Of a DNA stretch of 64,000 nucleotides, positions 3,807-54,520 are shown piece after piece. This DNA comes from Eledone cirrhosa (Eukaryota): the NCBI GenBank assembly GCA_964016885.1, contig OZ024744.1, forward strand, positions 92,132,001-92,196,000. Direction: 5' to 3'. Below the pieces are notes generated by a model that was not told the DNA's origin, searched no databases, and worked only from the letters and a program-made list of their open reading frames with translations. The position numbers and the translations under genes were made by a program. Every line of letters begins with the position of its first letter. The stretch's first letter is position 1.

Positions 3807-4381
<575 letters not shown>

Positions 4382-4499
4382 TATATATATATATATATAT
4401 ATATTCCCTTTCTTTTTCGCCCGTTGTTTCCTCAGCCTCATTTTCATATTTCTTATATTTTGTTTTCAAATCCACATTTAATAAAAACAGCATGTTTTA

Positions 4500-4533
4500 T
4501 TCATTCTGACGACTGAAACCACTGGTAAATGAA
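4500..4533 (+). ncRNA. HHR motif with stem II deleted (inverted partner of 3628-3685)
   Basis: ttcatt CTGACGA ct GAAA ccactgg TA aatgaa; 4477-4565 is the reverse complement of ~3597-3710. Confidence 0.65.
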
Positions 4534-4559
4534 ATAATTATCTTATGTTGTTTATTACA

Positions 4560-4630
<71 letters not shown>

Positions 4631-4635
4631 TATGT

Positions 4636-5076
4636 ATTTACGATATTAAATAAATGGAAACTATATTTATAAAACCATATTTATTTCATTATATATATTT
4701 CAGGGATATCATATTAAAAATATGTTATGCCTTCTTCAGACAAAATACAATATAAACAGTCTTATAAATAGATCTGACATACCTTTCAACTTCGACTTCT
4801 ATTTGAAAATCAACTTTTCAAATAGAAGTCGAAGTTGAAAGGTATGTCGAATCTATCTATTTATAAGACTGTTTATATTGTATTTTGTCTGAAGAAGGCA
4901 TAACATATTTTTAATATGATATCCCTGAAATATATATAATGAAATAAATATGGTTTTATAAATATAGTTTCCATTTATTTAATATCGTAAATATACTCCA
5001 AATACTTGTTGAGTGCTTTTATATCAGTTATAAATATTTACTCGTTGTTAACCCAACAATTTAAATAAAACTTTGC
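4636..5076. mobile_element. Palindromic mini-element with two opposed HHR motifs
   Basis: Near-perfect palindrome ~4636-4993 centred ~4810; HHR motifs 4682-4747(-) and 4881-4946(+) with CTGAAGA core and GAAA TATATA TA. Confidence 0.75.
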
Positions 5077-5153
5077 ATATATGTATATATATATATATGT
5101 ATATATATATGTATATGTGTGTGTATATGTATATGTGTGTGTATATGTATATG

Positions 5154-8332: not shown

Positions 8333-8815
8333 TGTATTGAAATTTCGTATTTCTAAAGAAATACGATATGTTTATAGATAAATATTTAGAAAGCCGAAGC
8401 TATGCAAAACACCGGGGTTATCGCCCTCTGGCGGTCTCCAGTAGAAGCAAGGGGGACAATCGTCGATGCATTTCAAACTTAACTGGTTCTCATTGGGACG
8501 ATCCCTCCCACTCTTGCGACTGCTGGACTTGAAAACAGTCGAGAATATATAGTTTTCTCGTCTGTGTAAATGAGGTGATTAATCTCATTTGCATATGAAG
8601 CTGCATGTCCAGCAGTCGCAAGAGTGTGTGTGTGTGTGTGGGGGTTGTCCTGATGAGTACCAGTTCAGTTCGAAATGCATTGACGATTGTCTCCCTTGCT
8701 TCTGCTGGACACCACCAGGTGGCGATAGCCGCCGGTGTTTTGAATAGCTACGGCTTTCTAAATGTTTATCAATAAACATAGCGTATTTCTTTAGAAATAC
8801 GAAATTTCAATACAT
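8333..8815. mobile_element. Foldback/MITE-like element with ~190-bp imperfect terminal inverted repeats
   Basis: atgtattgaaatttcgtatttctaaagaaatacg at 8333 mirrored by cgtatttctttagaaatacgaaatttcaatacat ending ~8815. Confidence 0.75.
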
Positions 8816-26675: not shown

Positions 26676-26709
<34 letters not shown>

Positions 26710-27111
26710 AAAGTTATATTTAAAATTGTTGGGTTACAACTAGTAAATATTTATAACTGATATAAAAGCACTCGACAAATATTTGGAGTATATTTACAAT
26801 ATTAAATAAATGGAAACTATATTTTCTATATATATATGTATCTATCTCTATTTCCTCTCTCTCTCTATATATATATCTCTTTCTGTTTCTTTACATGAAG
26901 TTCTTCGCTTTATCTATCTTTCCATCTCTCTATTTTGTTCCATGCATTTCTTTTTTTTCTTCCTTTTCTTCGTTTTCTGTCTTTCTTTCTTTTTTCTCTC
27001 TTCCTTTCTCTCTGTGTAAAATTTTTTCACTGCCAGCTTAAACCTCTTCAAATGGAAGTCGGTGTTATAACGGTATGTCGAATCTATTTATCTATAAAAC
27101 TGTTTATATTG

Positions 27112-27177
27112 TATTTTGTCTGAGGAAGGCATAGCATATTGTTAATATGATATCCCCGAAATATATATAATGAAATA
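27112..27177 (+). ncRNA. HHR motif (mini-palindrome family)
   Basis: tattttgt-CTGAGGA-..-GAAA TATATA TA-atgaaata. Confidence 0.65.
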
Positions 27178-27229
27178 AATATGGTTTTATAAATATAGTT
27201 TCCATTTATTTAATATTGTATATATATAT

Positions 27230-27660
27230 ATATAAACGTTTGTATATGTATAATAAAGCCAAAACAATGCTGGTATGGACATAGAATAAAGAATGCAAAT
27301 GCAAAAGATATTGTTGACAATTAGTCTTTTACCTTAGATTTATTTAAATGTCCTTAATTTTCGAGATAATATCTCTTCTTCGGAGGGAAGTAAAGCGGTT
27401 AAACCAGTGTTCTAAATAGCTTGCCAAGTCACGCCGATAGGAAATGGTATATAGTATCTGTTCTATCTCTAATGTCAAAGAGTTAAGGTTAGGTGGATAA
27501 AGAGTAGTCTCCATTTAAAAGGTTTTTTTTTTGTACATGCCTGTTTAAGTGTGTGGGAGAATGCATGAAGGTGTAAGTATGTGAGTGTGTGTGTGTGTGT
27601 GTGAGAGTGAGAAGATATGTCTATACGTAAATGTGGGGGATAGATGTTATCTCGTGTTAG

Positions 27661-27663
<3 letters not shown>
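27230..27663 (-). mobile_element. Third copy of the PLE 3' terminal region
   Basis: Near-identical to 23570-23996. Confidence 0.85.
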
Positions 27664-27721
<58 letters not shown>

Positions 27722-27782
27722 TAAAATAATATATATATATATATATATATATACAATGATATATATATATATATATATATAC

Positions 27783-28148
27783 AATGATACTAAATAAATG
27801 GAAAGTATATTTATAAAACCATATTTATTTTATTATATATATTTCAAGGGTAACCAAGACAACATTGGTACACTTTCATCAGATAAAATACAAAGTTTGT
27901 TTTATAAATAGAGACATACCCATGGAAATCATACCTTATCGGTTTGTATTTTATCTGATGAAAGCGTACCAATGTTGTCTTGGTTACCCTTGAAATATAT
28001 ATAATAAAATAAATATGGTTTTATAAATATAGTTTCCATTTATTTAATATCATTGAATATTTACTCCAGTAAACTGTTGAGTGCTCTAAATCAGTTATAA
28101 ACATTTATGTTTGTCGGACTTCCAACAAATTAAATAGCACTTCTACGT
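27783..28148. mobile_element. Palindromic mini-element with two opposed HHRs (27826-27890 -, 27947-28011 +)
   Basis: tattttat-CTGATGA-aag..ccaa/ttgg..ctt-GAAA-TATATA-TA-ataaaata; perfect 8-bp stem I; (TA)n on both sides. Confidence 0.8.
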
Positions 28149-28450
28149 ATATATATATATATATATATATATGAATGAAAAATGGCGTACTGCGTTGTTA
28201 CGAATGTGATATATATGAATTAAAAAATAGTGCAAGAAGCCAGGACTATCCATCATCAGTGATCTTCTGGCCATCATAGGTACTTCTTCGCATTAAAGAT
28301 CAGATACCTCAGGCCAGCGCGATCAATAACTAAAATAAGTTATTGGGATAAAAAGAATTGGGTATGAGTGTGTGTGTGTCTGTGTGTGTGTATGAGTCTC
28401 ACTCTCCCACCGTCCAGCCTCTCCTCTCTCTTTTACCCTCACACTCACTT

Positions 28451-36935: not shown

Positions 36936-37125
36936 AACGAGTAGGACCCCGACGGCTGAGCTCAAGCCGTTTCGACGGCTAATTCTGGACTCCAGAATTA
37001 CCCGTCGAAACGGCTTGAGCTCAGCCATCGGGGTCCTACTCGTTCCTATTACCCACTCTACTACCCTAAGTATTGAGTACTTTGGTGCGTTATGGTCCAC
37101 CTGGTTCCTTACCACATTTCTTCCG

Positions 37126-39175: not shown

Positions 39176-40935
39176 CACTCTGGACATTCCGCACGCCATC
39201 TCACAGTCTGTGGCCTACTCCAATGCCACGGAACACCCGCCAATCGCCTTAGAGTCGAACAAAGAACTATCTTCATCTTACAGACTCACACTCCCCCCCC
39301 CCCCCCCCCGGCCTGAACACACCACCCTTATTCCTTTAGCCTTCGACCGCCCCCCTCCCCCACACTTATCCCCCACTAACACCACTAACACACCCCTCCT
39401 TTTCACCGCCCACCCCACAACAAACAATACTAACACCTCCACTCCACCCCTCATCCGACCACCCTTCCCCAACTAACATACTAACATCCCCCCTTCTTCT
39501 CCTCCTCCCCCCTCCTTATCACACGCACACACCCACCGGCACATATATACACGCGCTCACACTAAACACACACCCTACTACCACCACTAACCCTCACCCC
39601 CACACCTCCATCCCACCACCCCGCAACTAACCTCACTAACACCCCCTGACCCCAAGCACATGAACACACGCACCCACTTACATCACCCACCCCACACGCA
39701 ACTAACATCACTAAAAAAACCCAACCCCACGCACACGTACCCACACACTCTCGTACACCACCAACTCTACACACCCTACCACCACTAACCCCCACTCACA
39801 CCTGCATTCAACCCTTCCCTACCTCCCGTATACTAACACCCACTAACACCCCCTTCATCAAACTACACACACACCAGTACACCACACTCCCTCCATAGAA
39901 CTACACACACCCTTCTCTCCCCGCTCCACCCACACCCTCGCTCCACACTCACTCATCCCACTAACACCTCTACTAATACACATACACACCCTCCTCACTC
40001 CAACTTTCACACCTACCCATCCTCGCCCCTTTATCATTCCACCGACTGCTGCTATGCCCTCTGACCACCTCCCAGCACAAACAGACACACAGCACTCCCA
40101 CCGCTTGACCACTTCCTGTTGCGCGCGCAACCCACATCTCTCCTCTTCCGACCATCTCTTCATGGAATACTCGTATGTGCAACTTGACCACCACGGAATC
40201 TACTAAACATCATAGGAATTTACTAACATTTCAACCATCCTCTTACGGAATCACCTATATAACTCACCCACACACACACCCCAAACATTTTTTAGCTCCC
40301 ACACGCCACCTACACCCACAACACGCTTAAACCTCACACACACGTGCTTTCCACCACATATTTACACCCTCAGCCTCCTGATTCCTCTCCCCCACCCCTC
40401 TATCCACACACGCACAGACATTCTGACCTACAACCCCCCACACACACACCTCTTCCTGAACATGCAACCCCGTTCTTCCCCCAACCCTTACTTTCACATA
40501 CACACACACACACGTACACCTACACACACACACCACCTTCAGCCCTCCCCGCTCGGACACCCCGTCTCCCTCTCCCCACTCCACCCGCCACCACCCCTAC
40601 ACACCCCACACCCTTCCACCACCTGTTTTACCCCTTTTAATTTCAGTTTATTTTGATCATGTTTTATATTTAATTTTATTTCATTCCTTGTATTTTGATC
40701 ATGCTTTATTTTTATTTTTATTTTTAATTTCATTCGCACCGTTTCCTTCCGCTATATGTCTCTCCACCACTCCCCTACACATCCTTTGAACTCTGTTCCC
40801 ACACACTTCTCACCTGAAGAAGGGCTTATGCCCGAAACGTCGTTCCCCACCACCACCCCACTCTCCAGAGCGTGAAATTAATAAACATTCGTTGTACTGC
40901 CTCTCTGTTTTGTTCCTGTTCAAATTTTTCCATTA
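39176..40935 (+). mobile_element. 5'-truncated PLE: GIY-YIG C-terminus, ~1.5-kb C/A-rich 3' region, terminal HHR
   Basis: Frame from 39176 reads HSGHSARHLTVCGLLQCHGTPANRLRVEQRTIFILQTHTP..GLN (Neptune-like endonuclease end); ends in (TA)n. Confidence 0.7.
40812..40843 (+). ncRNA. Minimal HHR motif
   Basis: ac-CTGAAGA-a GGGC ttat GCCC-GAAA-C-GTC-gt; palindromic ACGT stem III, stem I only 2 bp. Confidence 0.7.
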
Positions 40936-43013: not shown

Positions 43014-43296
43014 AATCAGTTATAAACATTTATATTTGTCGGACTTCCAACAAATTAAATACCACTTCTACTTATATATATACATATATATATAACGAAG
43101 GAAATGTGGTAAGGAACCAGATGGACCATAACGCACCAAAGTACTCAATACTTAGGGTAGTAGAGTGGGTAATAGGAACGAGTAGGACCCCGACGGCTGA
43201 GCCCAAGCCGTTTCGACGGCTAATTCTGGACTAAAATTTTAGTCCAGAATTAGCCGTCGAAACGGCTTGCGCTCAGCCGTCGGGGTCCTACTCGTT

Positions 43297-43800
<504 letters not shown>

Positions 43801-43807
43801 TATATAT

Positions 43808-45017
43808 ACCAGATAGAAAAATGCGTACAGCAAAAAAAAGTAATATTGTTGGAATATAAACCTTTAAAAATACAGGACAAGAAACTAAGATAAAACTTTA
43901 AAAAATAGGACAAGAAACTAAAATAAAACTTTAAAAGAATAGGACAAGAAACTAAGATAAAACTTTAAAAGAATAGGACAAGAAACTAAGATAAAACTTT
44001 AAAAGAATAGGACAAGAAACTAAGATAAAACTTTAAAAGAATAGGACAAGAAACTAAGATAAAACTTTAAAAGAATAGGACAAGAAACTAAGATAAATCT
44101 TTAAAAGAATAGGACAAGAAACTAAGATAAAACTTTAAAAGAATTGGACAAGAAATAAAAAATTTTACAATATTAGTGGCAAAATTTTTATTGGTAAAAA
44201 ATCGAGTTCCACATTCATAGGCTCTGGGTTCCACATTCAGAGGTCGTCGTCAGACCGGGGGGGGATCATTTGATCCTGGTTTGAACTCCAATTGGGCCAT
44301 AACCATACCCCTATTTCATCATTCGGCGACACGCCTCATGTGTCATGCATAATGTGAATGGACCATGGGCCCATGAGCACAGATCTTGAGCAGCAGCGGA
44401 CGGTCTTGTCGTCCCGCTCATCCTTGATCTTGACCAACTCGTCCATCTTCTCCTTGCATCTTGTCCTTGAGTTCAAGTCCGGCAGTCCAGATGAATGCGT
44501 GCCAGAGCTTTCAGGTACAGGAAGGGGGAGCAGGAGGACTGGAGGGATGACGGGACAGAGGGAGGGAGGACCGGTGGTTGAGGGAGGTGCCGTAGTCGGT
44601 GGTCAGAGTCGACATCTTGTCCCGGTCGTCTTCTCCATCTTCGTCTGGTGTTGCGGGACCAGAAGTGCATTCTTGGAGGAGACCTGCAGCTGCATCGGCC
44701 AATTCTTCTTGCAATGGTCATTCTGACGGAGCAGAACTGCTCAGCCAACCAACTCCAACCAGAACCAACCGCTCAGGGGCAACGCACAATGAGAGCATGA
44801 CAATTATTATGCACTAATCAAGAAGATACTACAAAAAACAATTTTGCCACTAATATTGTTGTAAAATTTTTTATTTCTTGTCCAATTCTTTAAAGTTTTA
44901 TCTTAGTTTCTTGTCCTATTCTTTTAAAGTTTTATTTTAGTTTCTTGTCCTGTATTTTTAAAGGTTTATATTCCAACAATATTACTTTTTTTTGCTGTAC
45001 GCATTTTTCTATCTGGT
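43808..45017. repeat. Inverted repeat (43808-44186 / 44840-45017) containing a 34-bp tandem unit
   Basis: Unit aggacaagaaactaagataaaactttaaaagaat, ~9 copies left and ~3 right. Confidence 0.9.
44336..44714 (-). pseudogene. GC-rich, apparently frameshifted small gene of unknown function
   Basis: MQEELADAAAGLLQECTSGPATPDEDGEDDRDKMST / PPTTAPPSTTGPP..KEKMDELVKIKDERDDK..; AATAAA at 44187-44192(-). Confidence 0.35.
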
Positions 45018-45289
45018 CTACTATTTTTTAAGGCAATGCAAGCAACAACTATCTAATAATTAAATGATCATAGTGAATTACTGACAAGTGATTGACTTTT
45101 AAAGTTCTTTTGAGTATAATTGCAATCTAGTTGAGGCAACTGGCTTAATGACAAAGCTAGTAAATCATGAATGCATTTGAGATGATTAGTGCATAATAGT
45201 GAATTGGTGAAACTTGTACATTTCAATGGTGTTACAACAATAGATGTAAGTTATATAGTAGTAATACTTTATAATTTTAACTTTTTAGA

Positions 45290-45649
45290 ATGGACAAAAA
45301 CCCATGCAAAGAAATGACTTTGACTGCAGTGATTCTCTCCAATTTACTTACAAAGCAAAACGTGGTCAAATACCTTATCATCTCTGATAAAATGCCCATT
45401 GAATCACTGAAAATGGGATGCATGGAATTCCTCATAAAATGCACCTATGAATCGGAAGCCATCACATATATCAATGGATATAGGGAGTTGTTCACACTGG
45501 AAGACCATCACTTCATTTGTGACTTCATCAGTTATCTCCACGATTATCTCAGACACTCAATGCCATTGATGAGAGGTGATCCAATATGTGAGCATGTAAC
45601 TAATCTTATAGAAGTTGTTATCGACCATCTTGCTTTTAGTGACATTTGA
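45290..45649 (+). CDS. 119-aa ORF with BACK/SPOP-C-terminus-like helical motif
   Basis: SNLLTKQNVVKYLIISDKMPIESLKMGCMEFL resembles [31 protein letters not shown] by eye; possible 43-nt GTAAGT..TTTTTAG intron 45246-45288; AATAAA 45735-45740. Confidence 0.5.
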   Translation: MDKNPCKEMTLTAVILSNLLTKQNVVKYLIISDKMPIESLKMGCMEFLIKCTYESEAITYINGYRELFTLEDHHFICDFISYLHDYLRHSMPLMRGDPICEHVTNLIEVVIDHLAFSDI

Positions 45650-45829
45650 CTGATTTGACTGATAATGATGTATTTTTAAAAAGTATGTGTACATTCTTGT
45701 TACTATTTTAAGGCAATGCAAGCAACAACTATTTAATAAAATTTAAATTTAAAAATGACCATTGTGCATTACTAGTATGATGACATTTTATTAAGTCACA
45801 AAATTAGTCAGTCAGCCATAGAACAAGGA

Positions 45830-46501
45830 TCAGGTGGCAAAAACATTGGCAAAAATTTGTGTTAATTTAAGATTTCCAACATTGTTCAAATGAATCATAT
45901 CTGGTTTGAAGTCAGATTTGTCAAATTTTGACCAATTTTCAATGTTGTGAAGATTGGGCAAGTTCAATTTTTGAATCATTTCTTTCATGCAGTAATTAAA
46001 CTTTTCCAAACGAGAATTTCTCTTGCCCAAGTCATTTTTATTTTCAAGTACACTTTGTGGACGTGGAATGACACCACTGTAGAAAATGGGTGTACAGTGG
46101 TGCTTTTCCGCTATTTTCTGTAGCCTTGCAAAGAGACTCTTCCCCTGTTTTTCCGGTTTTGTGCCTCGAGTGGGCACTTTGTCCTTAATTTACAAATAAA
46201 TGATTAATAAAAAATACTTGGGCAAAAATTATTGTATTACTTTGCACAGCTTTGTAGTGCCAACGGTGCGACGAGGATTCAGATCATTAGAGCCGACATG
46301 AACCACCAATACTTTCACAAAAGGACAACAGATAACAATGTTGGCGATTAACATTACCTGGCCCTGACGGGCCCCAGGTATACAAAATATCTAAGTATTT
46401 TTATTGGTATGATAAGTAAATACATTTGAATTAATATTTTTATACCTTCTGGTCATTCGATTTCGCTACATTTCTAATTATGGATTTGTAAAAACTGGCA
46501 T
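45830..46501 (-). pseudogene. SGNH/GDSL hydrolase, three exons (46446-46501, 46241-46390, 45830-46183)
   Basis: Block I remnant xSIIRNV, block II IPGAR, block III VVHVGSND, YSGVIPR, block V DMIHLN; two phase-0 GT-AG introns of 55 and 57 nt; 1-nt frameshift near block I. Confidence 0.8.
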
Positions 46502-47198
46502 GAATGTGAATTTGATCAGACCAATTGCCCGATTTTAGTGAAAAGTTTTGATTCGAAATGGAAATACTCCATTTCCGTGCCATGGAAAAAATGAATAAGC
46601 CGATCAAAAAGCCGATCAAACATCATTTTTAATTAAGCGAAATTAGTGGATGCAAATCTCAGAAAATATTGTACACTATTCGCACCTATCGCACTATTCG
46701 CACCTATCGGTACAAAAATATAGCGCACTATTCGCACCTATCGGTACAAAAAATCGCACGACTGTTAATAATACTAGAAGTGCAAACTATCTGTTGAATA
46801 CCTGGTATATGAAGAGCAACCGATACGATCGGTCGGCGATCGGTCTTGAAGAAGAATGAAGAATGAAGTGAAATTTTGGTCTGGTTGTTGTCATCGGTGT
46901 TTCGCAGAGATGCCGGCACGAACAAAGGTGTCAGTGACACAAAGTTGTCCGCTTGAACAAAGGTGTCGGTCCGACAAAGGTGTCAGTCAGACAGACAATC
47001 AGACAGTGTCACAGTCGGTGCGACAAAGCGATCGATGCGATTAAAAAAAATTTAACTCACATGTTTACCTATATTTTCGCAAACTATTGATAGATTGGTA
47101 CAAAAAATAGCTTTGATAATAAACATAAATTTTTAACGAAGTATTTAAAAAGCATTTTAGCAGTGAAAAGTGAATTAATGTTTCACATTGACGCAAGT

Positions 47199-47322
47199 AG
47201 GGCCGTTCAGAAATGACGTAGTCAATTAGGAGGAGGGGATTCGGAGATTTGACTACATTTGACTAACGTAATCACAATCACAAGAGTTCTGCCGAAAAAA
47301 ATTCGTCGTTTCTGATGACCCC
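47199..47322. mobile_element. Small MITE-like inverted repeat
   Basis: gggccgttcagaaatgacg / cgtcgtttctgatgacccc. Confidence 0.45.
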
Positions 47323-47604
47323 GTAGAGAGAGAGAGACTAGTAATTACCTCCCCTAGCGTCACGCTTACTACTCACTCACTTGAACACAAGATTTATCAG
47401 CAAACTTTGATTATAAACTTTATCCCGCTGGACCAAATTTCTAGATTTTTAAGCCAAAAGATACGTAATGATCTACTGTTCATGCACATATAGGTTTTAT
47501 CTCAGTTAAATAAAGTAGAGCCGCGCTGTACTGTCGTAAACAGACGATTGCCAACGAAAACACGACCATTACAATATTACTAAACGGACTACCGTCCGTT
47601 TAGG

Positions 47605-47667
<63 letters not shown>

Positions 47668-48721: not shown

Positions 48722-50836
48722 TCATCATCATCATCATCATCATCATTTTACGTCCGCTCTTCCCTGCTCGCAATGGGTCTTATTCAGCACAACGTCTCTC
48801 CCTTTGTCATGGTCCTTCGTCCTCTCCGCCGTGAGCTTCAATGATCTGAGGTCTGTTCTCACCACCTCCGCCCATGTTTTTCGTGGTCTACCTCTACCAC
48901 GTCTTCCTTCAACTGGCATTTCCTGGCACTTCTTCACCCATCGGTCATCCTCCATGCGCATCACATGTCCATACCACCTCAGTCTCCTCTCCCGTACACT
49001 ACATTCTATCCCTCTCAGACACAGTTTCTCTCTCAACACATTCATGCTGGGTCGTTCACGCACATTTACATTGCACATCCAACGGAGCATGCTTGCCTCA
49101 TTTCTCTCCAGCCGTCGCATATCCTCTGCAGTTGCTGCTCATGTCTCACTACCATGCAGCATCACGCTCCTCACACAGGCATCATATAACCGGCCTTTTG
49201 TACGCAGTGAGAAACCCTTCTTCGTCAGCAGAGGAAGCAGCTCCCTAAACTTCTTCCAACCCGTCCTTATTCTAGATACTATGGCCTCGGAACCCCCCCC
49301 TCCCATGCTAATCTGATCTCCTAGGTACCGGAAGCTATCCACCACTTCTATAGCACCCGCCTGCATTTGGAAAATGTGTCTATCAATGCGACTTCTACTA
49401 TCTAATTTCCCTGTACATCTGCATACGTATTTCTCCCTACCTGTTAGTTTGCCTGCTATCCCGCTACATCTCTTGTGCCCCCAGGATCTGCATTGTGTGC
49501 ATTTTATAGAATTTATGCCAGTTCCTTTTCTGCATATCGAACATGGCCATTTCCCTGACGGAATCAACACTTTTGTCTTAGCTAGGTTCACTCTCAGTCC
49601 TCTTGCTTCCAACTGCTGTTTCCATAGCCAGAATTTATTCTCTAGCTCCTCTACTGATTCTACTATAAGAACCAGATCGTCAGCATAGAGAAGTTCTCAT
49701 GGGCAGCCAGTCTTAAACTCCTCTGTTATGGCTTCGAGGACTATAATGAACAAGAGAGGGCTGAGGACCGAACCTTGATGTACTCCTACTTGTACCTGGA
49801 ATTCCTCACTAAACTCCATTCCTACCCTCACTTTACTGACAGCTCCTCTGTACAAAGTTTACACTGTCCTCACAAGCCATTCCCCAACACCTAGTTTCCT
49901 TAGGGACCACCAGATGACAGATCGGGGTACCCTATCAAAGGCCTTCTCTAGATCAACAAAGGCTCAGTATAGTGGCTTATTCTTCTCTAGGAACCTCTCT
50001 TGTAATTGTCTCACTAAGAAGAGGGCATCTGTTGTACTTTTCCCAGGCACAAAACCAAACTGCATCTCATCTAGTTTGACCCTTTCTCTATTTAGTTGTG
50101 CTAATATCCTTTCTGCCACTTTCATACCTGATCCATCAGTTTTATACCCCTATAATTCCTCCTCTCCAGAGCAACCCCTTTACCATTGTAGCAATTTATG
50201 AGAATACTGCTGCACCAGTCTTTGGGTATGACACCACCATATATAGCCTGATTGATGATGCATGCAACCAGTTTAATGCCTACGTCCCCTGATGCCTTCA
50301 GCATCTCAGCAACTATTCCCGATGGTCCAGCAGCCTTACCATTTTTCATTTCCCTAATCGCCGTTTGGACCCTATATTCGTCAATCTCAATAGCTGGTCC
50401 CTCTGTCAGGTCTACTGAGGGTAATTTCTCTCTCTCCCATTCGTTCTCCACATACATCAGTCTCTCATAATGACATTTCCAGGCCTCCTTTTTCTGGTCA
50501 TTCGTGACACTAAGTACACCGGCATCATCCCGGACACACTTATCTCCAACAACATCCTGATTTGCATTGACACACTGCCTTGTAATGTGGAACACCGCAC
50601 GCCTCTGATCTTCCCGTCGCAGAACATTGGCAAACCTCCTACTCTCAGCCTCCCTGCGTGCTAAGTACACCTGACATCTAGCTTCTCTCTTAACAGCTGT
50701 ATATCCTTCTCTACTCCCACCCTTTTTCCAAGCCTTCCATGCTAGTATTTTGTCTCTAATGGCCTTATCTACTGTGCTGTTCCACTACCAGGTCACTCTC
50801 TGTCTGGTTGGAGCTCTGCTCCAACCACAAGTTTAA
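48722..50836 (-). mobile_element. RTE-clade LINE relic (~2.1 kb) with (GAT)n tail
   Basis: ORFs 50122-50670, 49139-49612, 48743-49120 homologous to 41-1659; multiple stops and frameshifts. Confidence 0.95.
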
Positions 50837-52269: not shown

Positions 52270-53220
52270 TTGTGCTCTTGGTATAACAGAAAAGTCCTTT
52301 CTATCCTTTGTCTGGCAAATTTTCTTCAGCTGGATTCACTTCCAATTTCGAACTATTTTACAGAGTGTACTGGGTGTATTTTATTGTGTCACCAACACAA
52401 GAGACGGTGATAGTTTCTTGGCACAATAGAAGAGCCCTCTCCACCCTTTCTTTGGTAACATTTCCACAGCAGGATTCACTTCCTATTACCAACTATTTTA
52501 CAGAGTGTACTGGGTGTATTTTATTGTGTCACCAACACTAGAAACAAAGTTGGCTTCTTGGCACACCAGAAAAGTCCTCTCCGCCCTTTCTTTGGTAACA
52601 TTTTTGCAGGTGGACTCACTTTTTATTACCAACTATTTTACAGAGTGTACTGGGTGTATTTTATTGTGTCACCAACACTAGAAACAAAGTTGGCTTCTTG
52701 GCACAACAGAAAAGTCCTCTCCACCCTTTCTTTGTTAACATTTTTGCAGGTGGACTCACTTTTTATTACCAACTATTTTACAGAGTGTACTGGGTGTATT
52801 TTATTGTGTCACCAACACTAGAAACAAAGTTGGCTTCTTGGCACAACAGAAAAGTCCTCTCCACCCTTTCTTTGGTAACATTTTTGCAGGTGGACTCACT
52901 TTTTATTACCAACTATTTTACAGAGTGTACTGGGTGTCTTTTATTGTGTCACCAACACGAGAGACGATGATAGTTTCTTGGCACAACAGAAGAGTCCTCT
53001 TCAGTCTTCCTTTGGTAAATTTTCTGCCTCAGGATTCACTTCCAATTACTAACTATTTTACAGGGTGTACTAGGTGTATTTTATTGTGTCACCAACACGA
53101 GAGACGATGATAGTTTCTTGGCACAACAGAAGAGCCCTCTCCAGTCTTCCTTTGGTAAAATTTCTACTGCAGGATTCATTTCCTATCACCAACGACTTTC
53201 TTTACTGTGTCACCAACTTT
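52270..53220 (+). repeat. 140-bp tandem repeat, ~7 copies
   Basis: Shares core tttacagagtgtactgggtgtatttt with the 48-bp repeat. Confidence 0.9.
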
Positions 53221-53589: not shown

Positions 53590-54095
53590 TACCGAGAGCA
53601 TAATAGCTAGAATAAGGATAGGATGGAAAATATTTTGAGAGTTACTCCCACTGTTGATTATAAAAGGCTTCTCCCTAAGTATAAAAGGACAACTGTATGA
53701 CATCTGTGTGCAAGATAGTAAAACATTGGCAAATGACTACAGTTGACAGGCGTAGGCTGGAGAGAAATGATGCTTCGATGCTTCATTGGATGTGCAATGT
53801 AAATGTGAGAGAAAATCAGAGCTTGGATGAAATGAGGGAGAAGCTGGGTTTAAGAGGAATCCAAAATGGTGTGCAAGAGAGAAGACTGTGTTGGTATGGA
53901 CACGTGATGTGTATGGATGATGATCACTTGGTGAAGAAGTGCCAGGAAATCCCAGTGGAAGGAATTCGCAGTAGAGGACAACCAAGGAAAACCTGGTCAG
54001 AGGTGGTGAGAACTGACCTCAAATCACTGAAAATCAGCAAATGCCGTCCTGAAAAGGACCCGTCCAATCCATGCAAGCGTGGAAAATCTGACATA
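53590..54095 (+). mobile_element. RTE LINE 3' fragment
   Basis: RRRLERNDASMLHWMC..WYGHVM..GQPRKTWSEVVRTDL. Confidence 0.85.
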
Positions 54096-54124
54096 AAGTT
54101 AAGATTTTGTAGTTTGCTTGAAGC

Positions 54125-54520
54125 ATTGTTTCTACTTTTGGCACAATGCCAGCAATTAACCAGTACATTACTGGTACTTTACTTTATCGACCCCGTAAGG
54201 ATGAAAAGCAAAGTTAACCTTGGTGGGATTTGACCACAAACCGTAAAGGTACGTAACTCTATGCTGCAAAGCATGGCGTCAGACCCTCTACCGATACTGC
54301 CAATTCACCGCCCTCAGCATTGTATATAATAATATATAATTGTTTCTATTTTTGCCACAAGGCAAAGCAATTACCTCAGTGTATTACTGGTACTTTATTT
54401 TATCTACCCCGTAAGGATGAAAGGCAAAGTTAACCTCAGCGGGATTTGAACTCAGATCATAAAGGTGTATAACTCTATGCTGCAAAGCATGGCGTCCGAC
54501 CCTCTACCGATTCTGCCAAT
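54125..54520 (-). mobile_element. Two SINE A copies
   Basis: Reverse complement of SINE A at 54125-54313 and 54338-54520. Confidence 0.8.

Follow-up and report, generated by a model that had tools for sequence, protein, structure and literature searches.

The window, meaning the whole stretch of 64,000 nucleotides that was analysed, carries on its minus strand a putative SGNH esterase gene (45830-46583) composed of three exons, with two AT-rich segments between them that are likely spliceosomal introns. The features of the gene, listed from its 5' end, are as follows:

46481-46591: likely foreign 5' replacement, matched by a diverged 450-nt repeat contig with 18 differences and 3 gaps
46446-46583, minus strand: exon 1, 46 codons from the first in-frame ATG
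46391-46445, minus strand: intron 1 (predicted splicing), 55 nt, GTATAA..CTTAG, GT-AG, phase 0, 84% AT
46241-46390, minus strand: exon 2, 50 codons, with the block II Gly (IPGAR) and the block III Asn (HVGSND)
46184-46240, minus strand: intron 2 (predicted splicing), 57 nt, GTAATA..TTAAG, GT-AG, phase 0, 82% AT
45830-46183, minus strand: exon 3, 117 codons plus stop, with SGVIPR and the block V D-x-x-H (DMIHLN)

Removal of both segments leaves a single frame running from ATG 46583 to the TGA at 45830-45832 (213 aa), passing through SIIRNV (46484-46467), IPGAR (46381-46367), HVGSND (46300-46283), SGVIPR, and DMIHLN (45901-45884). The first-pass annotation had described two phase-0 GT-AG segments of 55 and 57 nt that bring SIIRNV, IPGAR, HVGSND, and DMIHLN into one frame, and both are found as described; its remark that the ORF track displays exon 3 alone is true among ORFs of at least 80 aa. 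The segments have the sequence attributes of U2 introns, namely GT-AG ends, an AT-rich body, and a frame restored when they are removed, with intron 1 shifting the frame and intron 2 containing two in-frame TAA codons. AT content across 45830-46600 peaks twice, once at each segment, exons being 61% AT against 84% and 82% in introns 1 and 2 (Fisher p 0.0007 and 0.0013, respectively).

Enumeration of 220 candidate GT-AG introns produced 7103 pairs, 227 of which gave a frame of at least 170 aa. Scored against two relatives, the pair 46391-46445 and 46184-46240 ranked first by a narrow lead (122.9 bits, runner-up 122.1), with acceptor 46391 and intron 2 common to all of the top six pairs. Against a profile built from four relatives only, without the window sequence, exon 2 alone scores 40.7 bits, and the addition of exon 1 brings 56.5 bits up to 61.2, in favour of intron 1. 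For intron 2, homology is not decisive (58.0 bits read through, 56.5 spliced), because the loop at this position differs in length between relatives, and its likely intronic reading is based on composition, GT-AG ends, and stops. No joint skipping either intron was present in the contigs of the four runs compared (X1, X4, X5, and X6, from two studies with three organism labels; type probable DNA or unstated).

All SGNH residues, S, G, N, and D-x-x-H, are present in the spliced frame. P0001-P0003, comprising the read-through and two relatives, were combined in a profile that matches the ZfL2-1 ORF1p esterase 4C1B with E 1.1e-11, aligning the block II Gly, the block III Asn, and the block V D-x-x-H (IPGAR, HVGSND, DMIH); the same search of 177,635 sequences gave a single further match, which was insignificant. 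The motifs and this match argue for the earlier assignment to the SGNH esterases of transposable elements, while the Pfam GDSL matches stay below cut-off. The Pfam scans covered exon 3 by itself and the read-through: exon 3 matches PF14606 (Lipase_GDSL_3) at 17.9 bits (E 0.004; gathering score 27), and the read-through matches PF13472 at 14.8 bits (E 0.04; gathering score 32.9). NCBIfam contributed nothing further for the esterase. In the ESM Atlas, two eukaryotic clusters rank on top (0.96 and 0.93), followed by GDSL clusters. The structure model of the read-through is of low confidence (pLDDT 52), and Foldseek returned nothing for it at E<=0.001. The esterase domain is basic, with 29 K+R versus 13 D+E.

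Among 1.84 billion representatives, phmmer retrieved two proteins at E<=0.001, and a profile search two further. These four proteins (P0002-P0005) are the only sequence relatives found; they are encoded on NCBI contigs of 0.7-2.4 kb, and all of them carry [IV]GDS. They share with the gene the signature PGAR..Q..L.A..V...P.V..L..HVGSND, and differ from it in their intact GDS and in a NADAR (YbiA-like) domain N-terminal to SGNH, matched by Pfam in P0003-P0005 and weakly in P0002. Relatives of the esterase were absent from metagenome and viral contigs, and protein searches with exon 3 and alignment A2 gave no longer fused forms, which is weak evidence. The literature search returned no description of a NADAR-SGNH fusion or of this esterase lineage; NADAR itself is reported, in the accessible portion of the source, in oyster Tx1 ORF1 and in an Ectocarpus Gypsy element (PMC12477816).

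The 5' end of the gene departs from this pattern. The block I Ser (TCC, 46484-46482) aligns with the Ser of the relatives, and the alignment begins exactly at this codon, so that SGNH homology within exon 1 is confined to 46484-46446 (SIIRNV...QK). The residues preceding the Ser are F-Y-K; the expected G-D is absent in all three frames, the in-frame reading being Y-K, and the first beta strand and the GDS motif of SGNH/GDSL proteins are both missing. Position 46501, the end coordinate given in the first-pass annotation, is the ATG of a different frame (MPVFT). Elsewhere in the 64-kb window no match to block I or NADAR occurs, and the sole [IVL]GDS in its six frames, at 40258, has no match to the profile. 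The idea that a third intron restores GDS was rejected, since none of 429 joins gives GD[ST]; some of these joins score up to 68.9 bits against 60.4, and the best six lose the Ser.

Block I had been described as apparently frameshifted in this copy. Three of the four runs cover it, X6 not reaching it, and the contigs listed for them, in X1 (46304-46569), X4 (46118-46496 and 46468-46550), and X5 (46159-46567), cross it with 0 gaps and no indel; the state is therefore shared and not private to the window copy. Both X1 and X4 contain the diverged 450-nt contig, which matches just 46481-46591 and turns to unlike sequence at 46481, where X4 also shows a loose end. Its depth in X4 is 61.5, compared with 4-13 over the esterase exons, and this excess is a weak sign that it represents an independent repeat. 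Since homology starts at the Ser without G-D and the match of the other repeat ends at the same codon, the family founder probably lost the 5' end of the gene, including the first strand and G-D. Some 25 junctions and loose ends are listed in all, and that this repeat junction falls at the Ser codon by coincidence has a small probability by rough estimate.

The in-frame ATG 46583 and the retention of all four catalytic residues mean that the gene could be functional. An intact, expressed esterase in the same carrier would comprise 213 aa from ATG 46583, have a natural Y-K-S block I, and act, as has been suggested for texim, on behalf of the element or the host germ line. It would account for the frame being open from 46622 through to the stop, for the presence of S, G, N, D, and H, for the poly(A) hexamers downstream, and for the absence of stops and indels among the listed majority differences. 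We nevertheless consider it unlikely, though of some weight, given that 4/4 relatives retain [IV]GDS, that the stretch upstream of the Ser matches another repeat, and that the 33 codons preceding the Ser have no homology, an open frame of 32-39 codons arising in 8-13% of shuffles. A one-base frameshift of block I in the family founder, with an ancestral gene beginning near ATG 46501 (MPVFT...SIIRNV) and a family-wide defect, is improbable. Of 112 single frame changes scored, the best one falls at 46484-46487 and does carry the alignment over the first strand (62.9 versus 60.4 bits), but the gain of 2.5 bits follows best-of-112 selection, neither Gly nor Asp is restored, and the diverged repeat has the same upstream sequence with no SGNH behind it. 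Regarding intron 2, the composition of 82% AT, the GT-AG ends lying exactly at an AT peak as in intron 1 and a 43-nt segment described below, the flanking exons without stops, and a hydrophobic translation differing from the loop of the relatives make it very improbable that 46184-46240 is decayed pseudogene coding sequence with two stops and no intron, even though its length is divisible by 3, its read-through has the higher score, and the loops of the relatives are longer at this position. We retain as the preferred reading a two-intron gene whose 5' end was lost in the founder.

The gene lies inside a larger element with candidate ends at 43809 and 47605, the remaining features of which are listed below (a slash marks the candidate border):

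47569-47605, minus strand: right terminal module, with an A/TC start, a perfect 10-bp hairpin (47580-47603), and a subterminal repeat
45650-45829: 3' region common to both genes, with poly(A)-signal hexamers at 45792 and 45737 (minus) and 45735 (plus)
45290-45649, plus strand: second ORF, convergent, 119 aa
45246-45288, plus strand: intron-like segment, 43 nt, GTAAGT..TTTTAG, 84% AT, just upstream of the ATG of the second ORF
44830-45016, plus strand: inverted duplicate of the left module, 2.9 copies of the 34-mer, likewise ending CTGG/T
44200-44800: GC-rich insert between the inverted modules, 51-64% GC, with several open frames of 76-122 codons
43809-44196, minus strand: left terminal module, with a 34-nt array, the inverted partner of the subterminal repeat (43840-43851), and the end CTGG/T at 43809

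The top ESM Atlas match of the second ORF (0.92) has BTB on 27% of its members, and these language-model features offer a lead only towards a BTB/BACK-like protein; Pfam gave no BTB match, the structure model is of low confidence (pLDDT 48), and the fold search was uninformative. Another frame of 45246-45649 contains the motif QRNDFDC, which we take to be reminiscent of Ulp1 proteases; a Ulp1 reading of this plus-strand region was rejected, the main ORF having no Pfam match and the spacing being too short. A segment of the shared 3' region, 45701-45748, is duplicated at 45019-45065 (88%). The GC-rich insert is possibly a captured gene fragment, and the four ORFs scanned within it had no Pfam match.

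The gene had also been called stand-alone, whereas it sits within a repeat family (45030-47600) present in 4/4 runs compared, with variants and deletion derivatives. Words of this stretch occur in 10 of 14 runs listed, from six studies, at least half of them in four runs, and the small shares in runs outside the four compared are not evidence for the family. In X1, 167 contigs fall on 45030-47600 (91/45/27/4 by identity band), and summed depth, which is not copy number, never drops below 490 in any of the 30 bins and rises to peaks at the two ends. A joint of 45159 to 47344 occurs in 3/4 runs and one of 45428 to 47344 in 1/4, as expected of derivatives formed by internal deletion. Few sites distinguish the window copy from the majority, and the 11 tested comprise four silent changes, six residue-changing ones, one intronic change, and no stops. 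One X4 contig continues about 200 nt beyond 47600, so the family may extend further. Contigs of X5 and X6 extend 124 nt left of 45030, and would enter the array of the duplicate if they match the window there. About 28 nt at 47313-47343 of the window copy are missing both in an X4 contig and at the junctions of the deletion derivatives; this segment starts with CTGATGA, presumably hammerhead-like, with no matching GAAA.

On the minus strand the element reads A/TC (47605) to CTGG/T (43809), with no evident target duplication in the one copy available. The hairpin at 47580-47603 is significantly stable (z -4.6; 0/200 shuffles equally stable), while next to CTGG the sequence forms none of significance (z -1.0; 29/200 shuffles fold as well). 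The 12-nt subterminal repeats at 43840-43851 and 47569-47580 are inverted and share nine letters in the window copy and 12 with the majority letters. The 34-nt array at 43856-44155 has 8.9 copies, and the inverted arms formed with the duplicate module measure 99 nt (43805-43903 and 44922-45020). No reading frame for a reverse transcriptase (RT) or transposase was seen inside the element and no Rep-helicase near the gene. The terminal motif had no match in metagenome, viral, or prokaryote collections, and Rfam gave sub-threshold chance matches only, none at gathering score. The hammerhead pattern CTGAnGA..GAAA was absent from 43809-47605, although a deleted derivative could lack it.

Other repeats surround the element in the window. 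A perfect-centre palindrome with 65-nt arms (98%) lies at 43172-43301, with related sequence near 37000, and we take it to be probably tail-to-tail Penelope-type repeat ends. A repeat at 43401-43811, with relatives at about 3960-5100 and 26700-28170, has 56-nt inverted arms (43500-43555 and 43756-43811), the right arm being cut at the element start. Compact matches to the hammerhead pattern CTGAnGA-stem-GAAA, a feature typical of Penelope-like repeats, occur at 8650, 37283, and 40814 on the plus strand, and a tandem array of approximately 140-nt units at 52287-53110 generates repeated ORFs. The ORFs at 48743-50784 (minus) and 53685-54233 (plus) presumably resemble decayed RTE-type LINE reverse transcriptase ends. 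LINE ORF1p is encoded by an intronless ORF1 upstream of an RT-bearing ORF2; the esterase gene has two introns and no long ORF downstream, and the LINE-like ORFs of 48743-50784 lie upstream of it, past microsatellites.

Our preferred interpretation, which we hold at about even confidence, is that approximately 43809-47605 is a non-autonomous Helitron-like rolling-circle transposon carrying a two-intron SGNH esterase whose 5' end was replaced in the founder, so that it likely makes no normal enzyme any more. An unseen autonomous partner would provide the Rep-helicase, recognise the subterminal repeat and the hairpin, and copy the element as DNA, which would explain why the introns persist here, unlike in LINE ORF1 esterases, and deletions within the element would give rise to the shorter derivatives. 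The esterase would be inherited cargo lacking its first strand and G-D. Its intact ancestor, possibly NADAR-fused as in the closest relatives, may have been a lipid esterase or a membrane-binding accessory, and by analogy with the ZfL2-1 enzyme it probably acted on lipids or membranes.

The ends of the element are candidate ends from a single copy, and other carriers were weighed on the same observations. In an improbable alternative, the locus would have arisen by deletion from a large, so far undescribed element, rolling-circle or virus-like, whose hybrid ends combine TC...CTRR with subterminal repeats and a hairpin on the 5' side. That element would bear a spliced cassette with introns of 43-57 nt, convergent genes, and a shared 3' region, which would encode an esterase of the NADAR-SGNH lineage with a working Y-K-S together with a BTB-like protein, and which was possibly imported from a small-intron organism. 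A carrier that is not rolling-circle at all, such as what deletion has left of a larger element with several small-intron genes (Penelope- or Terminon-like, a TIR/foldback transposon, or a virus-like cassette), appears distinctly improbable, because no hammerhead pattern, Rfam family at gathering score, or RT or transposase ORF was seen inside 43809-47605 and no relative in viral contigs; it would nonetheless fit the two convergent genes with their 43-57-nt introns, the 99-nt inverted arms, the candidate status of the ends, and the GDSL esterases encoded by Penelope-related elements in the available parts of two reports (PMC5408684, PMC6431247).

If the rolling-circle interpretation is true, intron-bearing SGNH cargo of such transposons extends beyond fish into a genome that is probably a cephalopod's, its SINE and microsatellite pattern suggesting an octopus, and the locus points to a NADAR-SGNH esterase lineage and a proto-Helentron-like end structure in an animal. 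Its interest lies in this lineage, in the hybrid character of the ends, and in a compact cassette of two genes, the whole being a variant of a known arrangement that touches on the wider question of why an esterase is retained by so many unrelated transposable elements. The window copy is probably damaged, and an autonomous progenitor would be the better object of study.

Comparison of the ends with described rolling-circle groups relies on the accessible sections of the sources. Canonical Helitrons (HLE1) have TC...CTRR termini and A/T sites (PMC11417382); the element has 5' TC, 3' CTRR, and an A/T site, short motifs at candidate ends, and lacks a hairpin just before the 3' CTRR. HINE/DINE-1 elements have subterminal repeats of 11-15 nt, a 3' stem-loop, central tandem repeats, and T/T insertion (PMC4067079, PMC7492417). 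The element likewise has inverted subterminal repeats within 11-17 nt and a stem-loop adjoining one of them, but its site, seen in a single copy, is A/T instead of T/T, and the repeat without a hairpin lies 31 nt, instead of 2-4, from the candidate end. Without a hairpin at CTRR and without T/T, it is filed under neither HLE1 nor HINE. Proto-Helentrons and HLE2-reverse elements have a stem-loop at the 5' end preceding the left repeat (PMC11417382, PMC4067079), an arrangement present here, with 5' TC instead of TT and 3' CTGG instead of CTAG. With HINE/DINE-1, proto-Helentron, and HLE2-reverse alike the element shares subterminal inverted repeats of about 12 nt, a stem-loop at one and an array at the other (PMC4067079, PMC7492417, PMC11417382), deletion derivatives, and no evident target duplication. 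It is set apart from them by the internal inverted duplicate of one end module, and from Helentrons by A/TC...CTGG/T, which is HLE1- or proto-Helentron-like. By analogy, its anatomy is closest to the proto-Helentron.

The best solved relative of the protein is the ZfL2-1 esterase 4C1B, which binds acidic phospholipids and uses S143, G165, N195, D279, and H282, according to the portion of the report available (PMC3905857). Block spacing, S/G/N/D-x-x-H, and basic composition are alike; the ZfL2-1 domain, with GDS, belongs to a LINE ORF1p encoded upstream of RT, whereas the present gene is intron-interrupted and has YKS, and no coiled-coil or RT partner was seen for it. In rotifers, GDSL esterase ORFs are shared among retroelements, and Penelope-related elements encode them; the bdelloid Terminon/Athena and Vesta elements carry such an accessory ORF, exchanged among transposable elements and in some cases catalytically dead, as far as the sections consulted describe (PMC5408684, PMC6431247). 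Being retroelements, these have RT and ends that bear hammerheads, neither of which was found in 43809-47605. Repeat annotation of Octopus vulgaris lists eight recently active Helitron families, and the accessible main text names no SGNH or esterase (PMC13282606). For SGNH domains in Helentrons the literature search gave no primary source, and the one paper naming both cites texim.

The texim genes of fish are the nearest precedent. In the parts of the source available they are multi-copy, intron-bearing SGNH genes mobilised by Helitrons, and like the present gene they are related to CR1 esterases, have no RT linkage, and associate with rolling-circle elements; teximYa and b have 15 exons, adjoin Helitron coding sequence, and are testis-expressed (PMC4021074). 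The present gene differs in having three exons, introns of 55-57 nt, an abnormal block I, and no Rep-helicase nearby. The first-pass annotation had regarded a stand-alone, intron-bearing SGNH copy with 55-57-nt introns as unusual; the texim precedent makes an intron-bearing SGNH gene borne by a Helitron less unusual than was claimed (PMC4021074).
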